DNA from: a virus
Strand: one strand, 5' to 3'
Virus genome (UHGV): UHGV-0115609
DNA length: 34,273 nucleotides
The position numbers were made by a program, and so were the translations under genes. The first letter of the stretch is position 1; every line of letters begins with the position of its first letter. Positions 21,457-30,014 of this stretch are shown here, piece after piece. The notes under the pieces are model-generated. The model had not been told where the DNA came from. It made no database searches and worked only from the letters and a program-made list of their open reading frames with translations.

Positions 21457-23796
21457 ATGGCAAAAGGAAAATCCGCACTGGCACTTGCTCTGAAAAAGAA
21501 AATCGGTAGCAACGACGAAATTCAGAAAGTAACTCATTGGATTGACACAGGCTTTCCTCCGTTAAACAAAGCTATTTCCGGTCGTTACGATGGCGGTTTC
21601 CCATGTGGTCGTATCGTAGAAGTATTCGGGCCACCAAGCGCGGGGAAATGTGTTACCGCAGACACCATGCTGCTGACGGAGCGTGGAATGGTAACAGTGA
21701 AAGAACTGTTTGAGATTGAGGGGCACAAAGCAACATGCACTACTCGCGATGTAGAGCATAACGTTGGACTCATCAATGAAAATGGCGTGATAGAGAAGAC
21801 CTCACACCTGACATGGAACAACCGTCGCAAATTCAAGCGTATTAAGCTGGCATCAGGCGGTTATATCGAGGCTACGTTCCGTCACCCAATCCGTGTGGTT
21901 GACGACTTAGGTAATGTCGTCTGGCGACATGCTGAAAAAATCAGTGTAGGCGACACGATTCCTTCAATGGTTGGCACACATCAATTCGGCGATCAGCACC
22001 TGGATGCCAATATCGCAAAACTGATGGGCTATTTAATTGCTGACGGATACGTGGCCTCTGAAAATTCAGTGAATTTTTCTAACACAGATCCTTTCATCAA
22101 GGATGAGTACTACCGCCTCATTTCGCTGGTATCAGACAAGATGCCAGTTACGAGAAAACATAACGGCTCGGAAGACCATGTGCTGTTTAGCAAAGAGGTG
22201 CGTTCGCTGCTTTTTAAAGAGTATGGTCTGGAGTATGAGAAAGCTGCTGGCAAGCAGGTTCCGTTGAGTGTGCGTCGCGCCAATAGCGAGGCTCAAATTG
22301 CATTCCTTCGCGGCTACTTTGAGCTGGAATGCCACGTCAATGATGGTCGCTGCATTGAGGTTGTGAGCGCGAGTGGGCTGCTGCTACAGCAAATTCGCCT
22401 CATGCTCCTGAATCTGGGGATTACGTCAACTATCTCTGAAAAACACGTCGCGGGTTATGAAAATACATATTACCGGCTGTCATTCAGTGGCTCTAATTAC
22501 GACCTTTTTCTGTCAACGATTGGTTTCGAATCTCCGGCACGTTTATCAGTGGCAACCAAACGGGACATTGGTTTTGACCGCACTTACTCAGGCTATGTTC
22601 CGCACATCAGCGGCTTAGTGAAATCACTCTACGAGTCGCTCACCAAGACCACCCGTGAAGACTACGCTCTGGTAGACCACGTTATTGGCCGCGGCGATCG
22701 TGTCGGAATAGACAAACTGCGAGAAATCTATGTCTCCTTCATTGGCAGAAAGAATCGTTTTAACGAGCATCTGTTTGCACAACTGGCAGCGGTAATTGGC
22801 TCTAACTTGTTCTACGACGAAGTCGTGGCTATTGAGGAAGGTGAAGCACCAACGTTCGACGTAGCGATGCCGGAAACACACTCTTTCTGGTCTAACGGGA
22901 TTATCAGCCACAACACATTCCTTGCAACAGCAGCGATGATCTCCGCTCAAAAACAAGATGGTCTGGCGGTATTCCTCGATCATGAAAACAGTTTTGACGT
23001 TGGCCTGGCTGTAGCCAATGGCCTGAACGCAGATGAGGATGACGGTCAGTGGGTATACAAGCAGCCAGATACCTTCGAAGACTCTGTAGAGTTGATCGGC
23101 ACAATACTTAAATTGGTTCGTGATGAAGAGCTTATCCCCGAATCAGCACCTATCTGTATCGTGGCTGACTCTCTTGCGTCTATGGTTCCGAACTCCAAAG
23201 CCGAGAAGTTCGAAAAGATGGCTGAAGGCACTGCCAAAGACAAAGATCAGCTAAACATGAACGACAATACGGCACTGGCTCGTGCGACGAGTGCGAACTT
23301 CCCTACTCTGGCTTTGTGGGCACGCAAATACAACGCCTGCATCATCTTCTTGAATCAGGTTCGCACAAAAATCGGTGTAATGTTTGGCGACCCTACTACG
23401 TCGCCAGGTGGAGATTCACCGAAGTTTTACGCTTCTGTGCGCATCCGTCTCGGTGCATCGGTGATGAAGGATGGGAAAGAGAAGATCGGCCAGGACGTAG
23501 GCGCAGAATGCATCAAAAACAAAGTTGCACCACCGTATGGCAAATGCACCTGGAAATTCTACTTCGATCCTACTCGTGGCCTCGACGTTATCGAGTCGCT
23601 CGTCGAGTACATGCTGGAAGAAGGATACCTGCCAAAGAACGCCAGCGGGCGAGTTGAAATTGGTGACAAGAAATACACCAAATCGCAGATCGTCGACATG
23701 TATCGGGAGAAGCCATTAGCAGAAATCATTGCTGCGTTACAGGCGATAGATGACCGACGAGAGAAGACATCACCAACAGAAGAACTAGAAGATTAA
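21457..23796 (+). CDS. recA: RecA-family recombinase precursor containing an intein
   Basis: N-extein ...PCGRIVEVFGPPSAGK and C-extein TFLATAAM...AVFLDHENSFD...QPDTFEDS...IFLNQVRTKIGVMFGDPTTSPGGDSPKFYASVRIRL are near-colinear with bacterial RecA. The P-loop GPPSAGK/T is split by a 422-aa insertion. Confidence 0.9.
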   Translation: MAKGKSALALALKKKIGSNDEIQKVTHWIDTGFPPLNKAISGRYDGGFPCGRIVEVFGPPSAGKCVTADTMLLTERGMVTVKELFEIEGHKATCTTRDVEHNVGLINENGVIEKTSHLTWNNRRKFKRIKLASGGYIEATFRHPIRVVDDLGNVVWRHAEKISVGDTIPSMVGTHQFGDQHLDANIAKLMGYLIADGYVASENSVNFSNTDPFIKDEYYRLISLVSDKMPVTRKHNGSEDHVLFSKEVRSLLFKEYGLEYEKAAGKQVPLSVRRANSEAQIAFLRGYFELECHVNDGRCIEVVSASGLLLQQIRLMLLNLGITSTISEKHVAGYENTYYRLSFSGSNYDLFLSTIGFESPARLSVATKRDIGFDRTYSGYVPHISGLVKSLYESLTKTTREDYALVDHVIGRGDRVGIDKLREIYVSFIGRKNRFNEHLFAQLAAVIGSNLFYDEVVAIEEGEAPTFDVAMPETHSFWSNGIISHNTFLATAAMISAQKQDGLAVFLDHENSFDVGLAVANGLNADEDDGQWVYKQPDTFEDSVELIGTILKLVRDEELIPESAPICIVADSLASMVPNSKAEKFEKMAEGTAKDKDQLNMNDNTALARATSANFPTLALWARKYNACIIFLNQVRTKIGVMFGDPTTSPGGDSPKFYASVRIRLGASVMKDGKEKIGQDVGAECIKNKVAPPYGKCTWKFYFDPTRGLDVIESLVEYMLEEGYLPKNASGRVEIGDKKYTKSQIVDMYREKPLAEIIAALQAIDDRREKTSPTEELED
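21649..22914 (+). mobile_element. Intein (class 1) with LAGLIDADG homing-endonuclease domain, inserted in the RecA Walker A motif
   Basis: Begins with Cys (CVTADTMLL, block A), has a TxxH block B (ATFRHP) and ends ...HSFWSNGIISHN followed by Thr (+1). Internal LAGLIDADG motifs KLMGYLIADGYV and FLRGYFELECHV. Removing it restores GPPSAGKT. Confidence 0.85.
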
Positions 23797-26323: not shown

Positions 26324-26535
26324 TGGCATTAACACTGGCAGGTCTGGAAATCGAGAAAACAAGCGGCTACTGGCGTGCTAAGGGTTTCAAGCAGCCTGGC
26401 ATTCTTGAGCGTCTGGAACGTGAAGATGGGTATATCGTCCACCAGCGGCGTGAATGGCGTATGTACGATCCAGAAACAGGAAAACTGACTACAAAAGCCG
26501 GAACACTTTGGGGCCTGTTGAAGAAAATACACTAA
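26323..26535 (+). CDS. Hypothetical protein (70 aa)
   Basis: ORF coupled to the upstream gene (ATAATGG overlap). Confidence 0.45.
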   Translation: MALTLAGLEIEKTSGYWRAKGFKQPGILERLEREDGYIVHQRREWRMYDPETGKLTTKAGTLWGLLKKIH

Positions 26536-26543
26536 TAGCACCA

Positions 26544-27025
26544 ACCACTGCGGTGAGTAGCCAGCTCACCGCATTCGTATCAGCTCATTATCCACTGTGG
26601 TCTGCAGTCCTCTCTTCCTACATATCTGCTAACCACTGTAGCGAGTAGACAGCCTTTCATTCGCATCAAACAACCACTATGGTGAGTATTGGAGTGAGAT
26701 GTCCAGCGGGTATCCACTATGGTGAGTAAGCCTTTGCTGTTTTCAGTGGATATCCACTCGCCACAGTGGATACGCTCAAAGATGAGGGCGACAACAACCA
26801 CTATAGACAGTAAATTTTCCAAGATACCCAGTGACCACTAACCTCGCAGCCCTTGTTTCATCAGTGTTAGTGATCACTAACATTTAATTCAGTATTTGCA
26901 TTCTACTGCCTACAGTGGTTATCAACAGATAACGATACTCACTATAGTGGATAGCGAATTACAGATATAAGTAAGGCTCACTACAGTGGATAGTGAGCCT
27001 TACTACTAACTACAGTGGTTGGGCT
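26544..27025. repeat. Iteron array downstream of repA (incA-like copy-control locus): at least 11 copies of a CCACT(A/G)T(A/G)G / C(T/C)A(T/C)AGTGG(A/T)T core in both orientations
   Basis: Visible repeats: AACCACTGCGGTGAGTAG, ATCCACTGTGG, AACCACTGTAGCGAGTAG, AACCACTATGGTGAGTA (twice), CAGTGGATA, CACAGTGGATAC, AACCACTATAGACAG, CTACAGTGGTTATC, CACTATAGTGGATAG, CACTACAGTGGATAG, CTACAGTGGTTGGG. Also contains the 16-bp perfect palindrome GTTAGTGATCACTAAC (26866-26881). Confidence 0.8.
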
Positions 27026-28079
27026 ATTTGCGAGTCTTTGCCTTGCGCAACTCTTCGAGAAGCGCCAGTTCTTCTTTACTCAACATGACCATTTTGCCTT
27101 CTTTTTCGTCAGGCACAACGTCGATAATGTCATCTTGATTCTCATCTGGGAGGCTATATTCCGTCTCATCATTATCGATTTTTGTTGATATTTGTGCCTG
27201 GCGTAACTTTGGCCGCCTATAGTGGATGATGAAGTAGACCGAGTTTCCGCGCTTAACTTCCGTGTAATCGAGATATCCTATCTCTCGCAGCTGTTCCATA
27301 GCCTTTCTTACCGTCGCATTCTGAGTAATAGTGCGACTTGTCAGATTAAGTCTGGCGCGTAAACGAGCTAGTGATATTGGTGCCGGATCAGGCGGCAAAC
27401 TTTCAATAAAAGTATAAAGCGCCTGAGCGGATTCTTTTCTTGAGAGTTCGTTTATAGCCCGGAGTTGCAGAAGAACCTTTTTGTCGAACTGGTAGAGTTC
27501 GAAAATCTTGGGATCTGCTTTCAGTTCGACCGTATCGTGCTTGACACTATATTTTGCCGTTTGCACAAGATGCGTTACGTAAAACTCATCAGAGCCTTTG
27601 CTACGGAACGAGATGGTATTTGTGGCAATACGGCTTAGCGAACTGTCCAGGCGTTTGCGTAACTTCGCTGATGACCTGGCGGTCGGAATGCCACACAGCC
27701 TTACAAACTCAACGAACGGCAACGTGACAGTATCGCCAACGACCTTGTGTTTGGCAAACGCGTGGATTATTCCCACCCACGTTTTAAAGTCGTTATCCAT
27801 ATCAAGCCGAAGGCCAGAGATCCTTATGTCTTCGTACCCTTCGGCTTTTGCCAGAGACAGCTGTTTGAGTTCAGCAGAGGCATCCATAGAGACCATTTGC
27901 CCCTTTCTTCCTCTGGATGTCGATTTCAGCGTCGGAACGAAGAGGCCCAGACGCATCAAAGCAACAGGCTGAACAGTGTTATTAGTGTTAGGAACCAACG
28001 TAACAACTTCGCCTGTCTTTTTATCTGTTTCTGAAAATGCTTCAACGATCGCTATGTTTTTATTGCCGTTTTCGCTCAT
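27024..28079 (-). CDS. repA: Replication initiator RepA (P1/IncFIB RepA-like iteron-binding protein)
   Basis: Segments [59 protein letters not shown] and [27 protein letters not shown] match my recollection of the P1 RepA family; the gene is bracketed by iteron arrays. Confidence 0.85.
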
Positions 28080-28122
28080 TCCAAATGTCTCTTGTTATTC
28101 GACGGCTTTGGTGGCCTTTGCT

Positions 28123-28243
28123 GATTACAGTGGATAGTAGCACTCATCACAGCGGTTATCCTACCGTCTATAGTGGTTTTTCTCCTCTCTATAGTGGTTG
28201 CTTTGCTCCCTATAGTGGATTATTCGCTCTCTATAGTGGATAT
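28123..28243. repeat. Six direct iterons (consensus CTCTATAGTGG(A/T)T) at 21-22 bp spacing, abutting the repA start (incC-like, probable autoregulated promoter/origin iterons)
   Basis: AGTGG/AGCGG cores at 28129, 28151, 28172, 28193, 28214 and 28235 (spacings 22, 21, 21, 21, 21), about two helical turns apart as in iteron replicons. Confidence 0.85.
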
Positions 28244-28289
28244 CGATCATGTCTGAAGGCAGATGGCGCAACGGTTTGAGGTGGGCGGG

Positions 28290-28408
28290 GATCTTATTGG
28301 GTCTTTATGGGTCTCTTTGGTTCTCTTTGTGATCTGAATTACTGGATCGGGCCTGTGGATAAAATCAGAGGATTTCAAGAACAGGTAACTCTACTCTTCT
28401 GTGGATAT
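28290..28408. promoter_or_regulatory. Origin-like module B: GATC sites and degenerate (G)GGTCTCTTTG repeats plus DnaA boxes
   Basis: GATC at 28290, 28331 and 28345; three tandem GGTCT/GTTCT-containing 11-mers (28297-28330); perfect DnaA box TGTGGATAA (28354-28362, complement of TTATCCACA) and near-perfect TGTGGATAT (28400-28408). Confidence 0.7.
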
Positions 28409-28519
28409 TTAAGGACATAAGAATCATGACTAAGAGTAGAGTTTAAAATATATCTATGTATATCAGTATGTTAATGAAGAATTAAGTCATTAAGTTATCC
28501 ATAAAAGACAATGTGCTCT

Positions 28520-28625
28520 ACTCTCTACAGTGGATATATACAGCTCTCCAGAGTGGTTGTTTTACTCTTCATAGCGGTTATTCAGCTCTCTACAGAGGTT
28601 TCTTTGCTCTCCATAGTGGATGGCA
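28520..28625. repeat. Second set of five direct iterons at 21-23 bp spacing
   Basis: Cores AGTGG 28529, AGTGG 28552, AGCGG 28573, AGAGG 28594, AGTGG 28615, each preceded by CTCT(A/C)(C/T); separated from the first set by an AT-rich stretch (28410-28510). Confidence 0.8.
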
Positions 28626-28662
28626 ACACCCTTTCAGACCAGTAACCGCAACGGCTAGAGGC

Positions 28663-28734
28663 GATCGGGGATCTCTTTGGATCTTCTATTTGATCTTACT
28701 TGGGATCTCTTATTTGGATCTATCCAGTGGATAA
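28663..28734. promoter_or_regulatory. Origin-like module A: cluster of six GATC (Dam) sites plus a DnaA-like box
   Basis: GATC at 28663, 28670, 28680, 28692, 28704 and 28717 within 58 bp, embedded in (T/G)GGATCT repeats; AGTGGATAA (28726-28734) is one mismatch from a DnaA box. Confidence 0.75.
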
Positions 28735-28821
28735 CTGGGATAAGTAAAACAGGCAAATGCAGATTAAGGTATGCCTAATGAGTTATCGTAGCATCGGCCA
28801 ATAACTACTGAAAAAACGATT

Positions 28822-29466
28822 ATGGATCTAAAACGCACGCGCTGGGTTCGTCGTCTTGAGGACGGCTCCTACACTATCGAATCAAATTCCAACCTGAATA
28901 AGCAGAAGTTGCTTTGTGACATCTGCGGTATAGCGGCGAAGTGCCCGATCTACGAAACCAGAATTAAACTTGATAAGGCTGGTGTGAATTTTCATTTAAA
29001 CAGTTGCATCAGGTACGTTCCATTGCTCGCATTTCGTAAACCGATCATCGGATTGGATGCACCCTACTTCAACACACTCCGTTCAGGTGTGACGTGGCAA
29101 GATCGTTTATCACCAGACAAGCTGATTTGCCTTGTATCCGCAGACACAGGGAAAATCATCCGTTTTGGGAAAGTAGACAAGGTTTACTCAGGCCCAGTAG
29201 ACGAAATGTTGCGGAAACACAGCCGGTTTAATCATCTCTGTATGGGTGGTGAGAAAATCGAGAAGGTAGAAGAAGTGATCCGCAAATCCTACGGACACTT
29301 CCTGACCAAAGATAGCCTGCTCACCGCAATCTACATCAGACATGTAAAACGTGAGTTCGACCTCGAATACCACAGTGAAGAAGAGCTTAACCTTGTTGAC
29401 CCACGTCCAAAAGCTGGCGTCATAAGCATAAACGCAGCGCGTAAAAAGCCCACTGAGACGTTTTAA
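28822..29466 (+). CDS. Hypothetical protein (214 aa)
   Basis: Long ORF just beyond the origin region; no motif recognised. Confidence 0.55.
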   Translation: MDLKRTRWVRRLEDGSYTIESNSNLNKQKLLCDICGIAAKCPIYETRIKLDKAGVNFHLNSCIRYVPLLAFRKPIIGLDAPYFNTLRSGVTWQDRLSPDKLICLVSADTGKIIRFGKVDKVYSGPVDEMLRKHSRFNHLCMGGEKIEKVEEVIRKSYGHFLTKDSLLTAIYIRHVKREFDLEYHSEEELNLVDPRPKAGVISINAARKKPTETF

Positions 29467-29541: not shown

Positions 29542-29983
29542 ATGAGTGAATTTTATTCAAGGGCAGCAACTGTGACAGACATGCCTTTTATCATGGCTGA
29601 GTTCGAGGACGGCGCACGCAAAGGTCACTTCTACGAAGAGATCCTCACATCAAAGGGGGGGGTAAAACCTTTGAGCAGCAGACCAGACTGGCAATCAAGA
29701 CGAACGAGCGGGGCCAATACTCCGGGCATTTTATCTACATCCTGCTGCATCGTTCTGATGACAAAAAGTAGGACTAATCTGGTTCTGTGCCGCACTCGAT
29801 CCGACTGGCGCACCTTGACTTGAACTCCGTGCCGTCAGTATTGTCAAAGAGCTTCGCGGAAAAGGCTATGGGTCAATGCTGGTGTCCGACATGATCGCAT
29901 CAAACCCTAGTCAGCCGATGATGGCAAAGTGCTACGTCAAATCCTCGCAAATGGCCGACATGCTGTTTCGCGACCCAAAATAA
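29542..29983 (+). pseudogene. GNAT-family N-acetyltransferase, disrupted (at least two frameshifts plus an in-frame TGA)
   Basis: Frame 1 from ATG 29542 through a G8 tract (29655-29662); protein-like sequence continues in the -1 frame (KTFEQQTRLAIKTNERGQYSGHFIYILLHRSDDKK) to an A5 tract (29763-29767), then in the +1 frame (VGLIWFCAALDPTGAP, TGA at 29816, then LELRAVSIVKELRGKGYGSMLV... with the GNAT motif A R-G-x-G-x-G) to the stop at 29981-29983. Confidence 0.55.
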
Positions 29984-30014
29984 AAAGCACCCCATACGAG
30001 GTGCTCCTGAAGAA

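Follow-up and report, generated by a model that had tools for sequence, protein, structure and literature searches.

Two tandem origin-like modules, both under apparent selection, upstream of repA in an SSU5-type phage-plasmid

Phage P1 and the IncFIB plasmids are textbook models of iteron control, and each of them has a single origin. According to the annotated P1 record, five iterons with the repA promoter (PrepA), a 39-nt gap, five Dam sites and a DnaA site follow one another outward from repA, and nine incA iterons, all on one strand, lie downstream of the gene. Opening of the P1 origin can be started by DnaA, and RepA helps greatly (PMC5043065). Replicons of the RepFIB/IncFIB type (P307, F and pO157; REPI of pColV-K30) carry iterons on both sides of rep; for IncFIB, origin function has been attributed to the upstream iterons and control to those downstream, and it is the downstream block that displaces a resident plasmid (PMC11983097). 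Studies of Dam methylation in P1 and in REPI of pColV-K30 are among the work cited in PMC2865523. The IncFIB core comprises five GATC sites and DnaA boxes, and each of the IncFIB loci from E. coli and IncFIB(K) loci from Klebsiella that were examined here has one module upstream of rep.

In R6K, one Rep protein serves several potential start sites per molecule (the alpha, beta and gamma origins), as is proposed below for the present locus, but these origins did not arise as a tandem repeat of a complete module. On chromosome 2 of Vibrio cholerae (ori2-min and ori2-inc), a second, regulatory block of initiator sites adjoins an iteron origin that has a DnaA box, like the present locus, and a GATC-dependent control, as is predicted for the present locus (PMC6090056). 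However, RctB, the initiator, and the sites of RctB bear no relation to those found here, GATC lies inside the iterons, and the regulatory block is no copy of the origin.

The locus described here comes from a window of 34,273 nt, i.e., the whole stretch of viral DNA that was analyzed (UHGV-0115609). Its repA gene (27024-28079, minus strand) encodes a Rep_3 initiator of 351 amino acids with WH1 and WH2 domains; as the gene is on the minus strand, “upstream” means rightward in the coordinates of the window. Both Pfam domains pass their cut-offs (Rep3_N, E 1.3e-10; Rep3_C, E 1.1e-4), and RepA is 61-63% identical to E. coli IncFIB RepA and 49% identical to phage P1 RepA (E 3e-93). The intergenic region upstream of repA, 742 bp in length, shares 99.7% identity with Escherichia phage Cyrano and, over its full length and between the same flanking genes, 80% with Salmonella phage SSU5. 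A phage replisome is encoded in the window as well, with genes for primase, ligase, Pol III alpha, a gp32-like protein, a 5'-3' exonuclease, an intein-bearing RecA and SbcCD. The matches to Cyrano and SSU5, together with the phage replisome, identify the element as a phage-plasmid of the SSU5/pHCM2/pMT1 type, which is syntenic with sequenced members and nearly identical to Cyrano. By homology, repA and its flanking regions are assigned as the plasmid-maintenance replicon of this phage-plasmid, belonging to the P1/IncFIB family of iteron replicons.

Matches to the intergenic region are present in 929 plasmid records from Klebsiella, Escherichia, Enterobacter, Pantoea, Yersinia and Salmonella. 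Among 5426 complete E. coli genomes, 91 (~1.7%) carry the region, every time on a plasmid of ~100-160 kb; 90 of these matches are full length at ≥98% identity, and the remaining one is partial, being ended by the start of the record. There are no natural deletion variants among the E. coli matches: both modules are kept in all 90 full-length cases.

The assignment to the P1/RepFIB family rests on a Rep_3 initiator homologous to RepFIB and P1 RepA, on iterons that flank rep on either side and recur every ~21-22 bp, and on a core of spacer, GATC array and DnaA box that is homologous to those of the members. In contrast to the single origin module upstream of rep in P1 and in the IncFIB and IncFIB(K) loci examined, two modules are found here. 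This second module is a point of difference from the family and no ground to exclude membership. By the same homology, the iterons are predicted to be RepA-binding sites, and the region is predicted to be an autonomous replicon.

The original prediction had described two successive modules of the same internal order upstream of repA, and all of their main features were recovered where it had placed them. The proximal module, block B (28121-28362; six iterons and three GATC sites overall), begins next to repA with an array of plus-strand iterons (28121-28245) that start at 28121, 28143, 28164, 28185, 28206 and 28227, i.e., with a period of 21-22 bp. The following G+C-rich spacer (28246-28286) lies inside a fixed interval of 46 nt, which runs from the end of the last iteron match to the first GGGATC that is conserved. 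The repeat core (28287-28349) has a 10-bp period and carries GATC at 28290, GGTCT at 28300 and 28310, GTTCT at 28320, and again GATC at 28331 and 28345. It is followed by a perfect DnaA box on the minus strand, TGTGGATAA (28354-28362), which reads TGTGTATAA in close relatives and there still matches TGTGNATAA. While the six iterons, the GGTCT repeats, the three GATC sites and the box at 28354 were thus borne out, a second DnaA box that had been attributed to block B was not: at 28400-28408, TGTGGATAT is a one-mismatch DnaA box in the present sequence, but close relatives have CTGGGGATAAT at this place, which is not a DnaA box.

The distal module, block A (28495-28744), has five iterons, six GATC sites and DnaA boxes on both flanks. 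Its plus-strand iterons (28521-28625) start at 28521, 28544, 28565, 28586 and 28607, and position-specific variants among them are kept in relatives, namely CCAGAG.GG in iteron 2, AGCGG in iteron 3 and AGAGG in iteron 4. The G+C-rich spacer (28626-28662) repeats the 46-nt geometry of block B. It leads into the GATC array (28663-28720), where six sites at 28663, 28670, 28680, 28692, 28704 and 28717 are packed into 58 bp with spacings of 7, 10, 12, 12 and 13 nt. The window contains 155 GATC sites (4.5 per kb), and this cluster is its densest 60-nt stretch. On the far side, the array is followed by minus-strand DnaA boxes (28726-28744), first AGTGGATAA (28726-28734), and then a weak second box, CTGGGATAA. 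The five iterons, the six GATC sites in 58 bp and the DnaA-like box that had been claimed for block A are therefore all present. Two features had been overlooked, the iteron field downstream of repA and a plus-strand DnaA box, TTATCCATA (28495-28503), which flanks block A towards repA. In several clades, the distal iterons are likewise flanked on the repA side by a second DnaA box: the equivalent site holds the consensus box TTATCCACA in four of the loci compared (L032, L064, L078 and L089) and TTATGCACA in a fifth (L066).

When aligned with each other, the two blocks are colinear over 207 columns with 70% identity (score 78, compared to 17.9 ± 2.5 and a maximum of 32 for shuffles). The internal order of block A is that of P1 oriR: iterons with a period of 21-22 bp, a G+C-rich spacer, a GATC array and tandem DnaA boxes, and both arrays open with GATC spacings of +7 and +10. 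The sequences of the block A core and of the core annotated for P1 oriR can also be aligned (score 73, compared to 17.7 ± 2.3 for shuffles), and the two share an identical 21-mer, TTGGATCTATCCAGTGGATAA. Together with the 49% identity of the initiators, this bears out the likeness to Dam/SeqA-regulated origins that had been proposed for this locus. GATC sites clustered about one helical turn apart, as in such origins, are present throughout the block A array and in part in block B, at 28290, 28331 and 28345. On these alignments, each block is homologous to an experimentally studied kind of origin, and the GATC array of block A is the predicted place of strand opening and of control by Dam and SeqA. 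P1 and the present element differ in that P1 has one module and the present element two in tandem, and in the sequence of the iterons, which are of the CAGCACACAT type in P1 and of the CTATAGTGGWT type here.

The distribution of the second module was followed in 39 viral and 80 genome loci that encode relatives of RepA. The sequence upstream of rep was searched with a profile that spans the spacer, the GATC array and the DnaA boxes, and which was built from ten diverse relatives and applied with a cut-off of 30 bits. Block A scores 81 bits and block B 42 bits, and the scores of proximal cores are partly low by construction, as only distal and single cores served as seeds; GATC counts, spacer lengths and identities are independent of the profile. 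The profile recovers one conserved type of core that is common to block A, E. coli IncFIB, Klebsiella IncFIB(K) and the large Pantoea plasmids. A single core adjoining rep is found in E. coli IncFIB, Klebsiella IncFIB(K), Photorhabdus and the loci of large Pantoea plasmids. Two cores are found in most loci in which RepA is 67-100% identical to that of the present element, including the SSU5 clade, a conjugative 188-kb Rahnella plasmid, Erwinia and Pantoea replicons of 200-800 kb, loci from Buttiauxella and Cedecea, and one Xenorhabdus-type locus. Phage-plasmids with two modules occur in Escherichia, Salmonella and Yersinia. However, as the layout is also present on the non-phage replicons of Rahnella, Erwinia and Pantoea, it is not a phage feature.

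In a rough tree of RepA, the replicons with a distal module form a clade, and the single-module replicons IncFIB, IncFIB(K) and those of the large Pantoea plasmids fall outside it. An ancient duplication, as suggested in the original prediction, is supported by the two-module layout of relatives whose RepA is just 67-77% identical, and with a derived character of the proximal cores. GATC is kept in unit 1 of 45/45 distinct proximal cores, in unit 4 of 45/45 and in unit 5 of 44/45, but in unit 3 of 17/45 and in unit 2 of a single core out of 45, while distinct distal and single cores have GATC in nearly all five units. The derived loss of GATC from unit 2 is common to 44 of the 45 proximal cores across clades, and one old duplication event is the best explanation for it. 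In a short and noisy tree of the 110-nt cores, the distal cores of four clades group together, with P1 among them, and the Rahnella and the Buttiauxella/Cedecea copies cluster by locus; the mean identities hardly differ (0.62 vs 0.59). The unit-2 loss is the better evidence for one duplication event.

The repeats of block B had been regarded as decayed copies of those in block A, and this view is contradicted by their conservation. Within the SSU5 clade, mean pairwise identity is 0.80 for the block B iterons, 0.86 for the block B repeat core and 0.87 for its DnaA box, compared to 0.86 for the block A iterons and 0.83 for the block A GATC core. The neutral reference in the same clade is much lower (four-fold sites of repA, 0.57; inter-module spacer, 0.59). 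The GGTCT and GTTCT units that distinguish block B from block A are themselves conserved. The same pattern is repeated in four other clades. These identities, well above what the neutral rate would leave, indicate purifying selection on both copies. Moreover, the distance that separates the last iteron from the first conserved GGGATC amounts to 45-46 nt in nearly all modules (proximal, 42-43 of 46; distal, 42 of 47; single, 28 of 28), with the few exceptions looking like artefacts of pattern matching. In block B, the sequence of the spacer drifts, with only ~0.72 identity between relatives, while its length is fixed. As the core is more conserved than neutral sites, the altered units are kept and the spacer length does not change, block B is a fixed variant with the geometry of an origin and not a decaying copy.

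The two copies differ in how uniformly their parts are kept. Distal cores have 5-6 GATC sites in 42/42 distinct cases, and all 42 have at least one DnaA box (≤1 mismatch) within 45 nt past the last GATC, whereas such a box past the last GATC is found in 34/45 proximal cores. The proximal core falls below 30 bits or is absent in groups at ≥4 places on the RepA tree (L078/79/89/91, L064/65/84, L056/57, L088 and most Xenorhabdus-type loci). The loci that were inspected (L078, L089, L064, L056 and L098) retain the proximal iterons and a complete distal module. The opposite case, an eroded distal copy next to an intact proximal copy, was found in one locus, L093. A core almost identical to that of block A also occurs next to another initiator: pJN2-26, an SSU5-like phage-plasmid of Klebsiella, has a different Rep, different iterons and a single core of this kind, which adjoins a gene for an ASCH-domain protein, a place equivalent to that of block A. 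The AT content and stacking energy of the block A and block B cores barely differ, too little to predict which of them opens.

Block B very probably carries the autoregulated promoter of repA, with the flanking iterons as its operator. A consensus scan for repA promoters gave weak matches, and it was the comparison of relatives that revealed a conserved extended -10-like element, TGCTACTAT (28134-28142, minus strand), between iterons 1 and 2 of block B and 54 nt before the repA ATG. On the repA-sense strand, the motif TGnTAnn[AG]T is present in 44/45 proximal iteron arrays of distinct two-module loci, compared to 1/45 distal arrays, and in representative loci of most clades it lies 53-54 nt from the start of repA. 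The annotated PrepA of P1 has the equivalent position relative to the iterons. It is on this position, and on the near-universal presence of the element in proximal arrays, that the promoter assignment rests.

Further iterons are found on the other side of repA. A weight matrix trained on the 11 upstream iterons only detects 13 additional sites of 13-24 bits in the window, all of them in 26539-27231, while the maximum elsewhere is 10.4 bits. Twelve of them form a field just downstream of repA (26539-27024), with six on the plus strand (26737, 26757, 26906, 26938, 26977 and 27006) and six on the minus strand (26539, 26586, 26627, 26668, 26708 and 26792), unlike the nine incA iterons of P1, which share one strand; the remaining one lies within repA (27213-27231). 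By position, the field is equivalent to P1 incA and to iterons E-K of IncFIB. The original prediction had rightly not decided which of the two upstream blocks fires, and had asked whether the other one is a copy-control “sink”; for such a role, the 12 downstream iterons are already an obvious candidate.

The anatomy of the locus, its homology to P1 and IncFIB origins, the age and spread of the duplication and the purifying selection on both copies are shown by the results above, while it is from what is established for P1 and F that we infer which copy opens, where the repA promoter lies, and what roles Dam, SeqA and DnaA might have. As the likeliest reading, held with moderate confidence, we propose that block A is the Dam-dependent origin, and that block B is the operator of repA and an auxiliary origin-like element. 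The module from which both are built consists of an optional DnaA box, five to six iterons, a 46-nt G+C-rich spacer, a T-rich GATC-bearing array with a period of ~11 bp, and one or more DnaA boxes. RepA monomers would occupy the iterons of block A and, together with DnaA bound to the flanking boxes, open the methylated GATC array at 28663-28720. After firing, the hemimethylated array of block A would be held by SeqA, which would gate re-initiation as in P1 oriR. RepA bound to iterons 1 and 2 of block B would repress repA. The GATC-poor core of block B might form the same kind of complex with RepA and DnaA as an auxiliary element, and could act either as a negative or pairing partner for block A or as a second origin of low frequency. 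This complex and the 12 downstream iterons may pair with block A via RepA, resulting in a copy limit of the handcuffing type. Given its single closely spaced GATC pair (28331 and 28345), the block B core would be a poor target for SeqA, a protein with a preference for GATC sites that lie close together on the same helical face (PMC2691817).

Block A is favored as the indispensable Dam-type origin because the putative promoter lies in block B, because the block B core has been lost repeatedly, because all 42 distinct distal cores have DnaA boxes, and because pJN2-26 has a core of the block A type. Some observations sit less easily with these assignments. The conservation of the block B core, its fixed spacer and its DnaA box exceed what a promoter and operator would need, which speaks against a purely regulatory block B and would fit a working origin equally well. 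Against block A as the origin, block B occupies the position of the sole origin in every single-module relative, L093 keeps the proximal copy while the distal one is eroded, and neither AT content nor stacking energy differs much between the cores.

The strongest rival, though a tentative one, is that both modules are working origins for one RepA, with block A being fully gated by Dam and SeqA, and block B being Dam-light and escaping sequestration more readily, which would provide redundancy or two modes of initiation. That block B keeps the 46-nt spacer, an AT-rich array that repeats every 10 bp and, 9 nt past the last GATC, a DnaA box, that it is conserved to the same degree as block A, and that the proximal copy is the survivor in L093 would all be expected of a functional origin. 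The loss of GATC is non-random as well, with units 2 and 3 lost and units 1, 4 and 5 kept, and block B has fewer of the closely spaced, same-face pairs that SeqA prefers (PMC2691817). However, the block B core has been dispensed with in several lineages. Single base changes in the GATC heptamers of P1 are also said, in work by Brendler, Abeles and Austin from 1991, to block oriR; if this is so, a core with two to three altered units should not fire. A more specific form of the same idea, which we consider somewhat more doubtful still, is that both copies are active and differently gated, block A with its 5-6 Dam sites being sequestered and block B, with the pattern GATC-x-x-GATC-GATC, acting as a SeqA-light twin, in a two-tier initiation or as a RepA handcuff in cis. 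If true, two-tier initiation or a built-in intramolecular handcuff would be a copy-control device undescribed for iteron plasmids.

It is unlikely that the roles are reversed, i.e., that block B is the real origin and block A an accessory, such as an enhancer, a partner for incompatibility or handcuffing, or a sink for DnaA and SeqA. This reading draws on the position of block B, which lies where IncFIB, IncFIB(K), P1 and the large Pantoea plasmids have their single origin and is thus its positional orthologue, and on the perfect DnaA box of block B, compared to a one-mismatch box in block A. On the other hand, it is block A that has the full set of GATC sites and DnaA boxes on both flanks and that is kept in every lineage but one, while the block B core was lost repeatedly; moreover, the core of block A is the part that is common to Klebsiella phage-plasmids with a different Rep. 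Far less probable is that block B, apart from its promoter, is a non-functional and decaying relic of the duplication: its lower profile scores, its smaller number of GATC sites and the absence of its core from some lineages would fit decay, but a core identity of 0.86 against a neutral 0.57-0.59, the conserved altered units and the invariant spacer length contradict it. That one module is a lytic origin for the phage replisome and the other the origin for plasmid maintenance is the least credible of all, since the replisome encoded in the window and the separate lytic and plasmid origins of P1 are outweighed by the presence of the layout on the 188-kb Rahnella plasmid and on Pantoea and Erwinia contigs of 200-800 kb, and by iterons for one RepA in both modules.

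Every part of the arrangement is of a known kind, and what appears to be new is the tandem, selectively kept twin origin with a fixed GATC pattern in its proximal copy. No description of a duplicated P1/IncFIB-type origin module was found in the searchable literature, where SSU5, pHCM2 and pMT1 were not linked to iterons or to a duplicated origin; older papers on pMT1, P307 and P1 are outside its coverage, and an earlier mention is possible. Experimental data for the present type of replicon were not found in the searchable literature either. The replicon maintains pMT1 of Yersinia pestis, pHCM2 of Salmonella Typhi and the ~110-kb SSU5-like phage-plasmids of E. coli, as well as large plasmids of Pantoea, Erwinia and Rahnella, and its arrangement raises the question how such plasmids time and limit their replication. 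A twin origin under selection amounts to a natural experiment, in which one copy has all Dam sites and the other a fixed subset of them. This bears on separating origin opening, autoregulation of the initiator and methylation-based timing, and also on incompatibility determinants and the design of curing cassettes for these elements.

Other candidate features of the region were examined as well. An Rfam search of 26400-28900 gave no match at E up to 1. A coding role for the repeats was rejected, with the open reading frames at 28513-28734 (plus strand) and 28247-28378 (minus strand) both carrying stop codons in relatives. The inter-module spacer (28367-28490) contains a 12-nt inverted repeat, the DnaA-like or iteron-like TGTGGATAT mentioned above, and a promoter-like match on the minus strand (28474-28447). 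An AT-rich spacer between the blocks, as originally described, is indeed present, with a G+C content of 20-30% (about 28400-28510). However, its AT-richness is confined to the present lineage and the sequence evolves neutrally, and it was therefore rejected as an unwinding element or as a promoter. For the same reasons, the promoter-like match and the inverted repeat within it are probably incidental.

The layout of Klebsiella phage pJN2-26 (L127, 1252-2662) suggests that replicons have been swapped, with the junction lying within or close to the conserved core of the origin-like modules. The backbone of this phage is that of the window, combined with a different Rep and with five iterons that differ from those of the window; its single core is nearly identical to that of block A, the module distal to repA. 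The annotated RepB CDS, 405 aa long, extends across the iterons, and in the pJN2-26 record attL and attR labels flank rep on its two sides. Directly past the DnaA boxes of block A lies GATAAGTAAAACAGGCA (28747-28821), which is almost invariant across the SSU5 clade and pJN2-26. This stretch may be part of the origin, or else of the promoter that serves the ASCH-domain gene at 28822-29466.

The usual polarity of the two modules is reversed at a single locus, on a Buttiauxella MAG contig (L093): upstream of rep, the distal module is eroded to one iteron and three GATC, whereas the proximal module is intact, with five iterons, four GATC and a perfect DnaA box. In the AT-rich spacer between the modules of the window, there are a perfect 12-nt inverted repeat (28387-28398/28432-28443) and a sigma-70-like promoter match on the minus strand (28474-28447, 10/12), neither of which is conserved in the relatives.

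Iterons also occur downstream of repA: the interval from the Cra-like gene to the stop codon of repA (26539-27024) is filled with 12 matches, six per strand, and the ORFs listed here, at 26454-26841, are probably spurious. The iteron core ATAGTGGATA (28121-28245 and relatives, e.g., L019) is similar to a DnaA box (TGTGGATAA), and AGTGGATAA, within one iteron of the relative L019, has one mismatch to the DnaA box consensus. Judged from these sequence similarities, some iterons might therefore also be bound weakly by DnaA.

Among the other genes of the window, the one at 29542-29990 corresponds to SSU5_071, the GNAT acetyltransferase gene of SSU5, but is interrupted where eight G follow one another (near 29655-29662). 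Either this gene is a pseudogene or the homopolymer was misread in sequencing; in phage Cyrano, too, no CDS is annotated at this place. Within a RecA-like ORF of 779 aa (21457-23796) lies an intein that carries a homing-endonuclease domain of the LAGLIDADG type.
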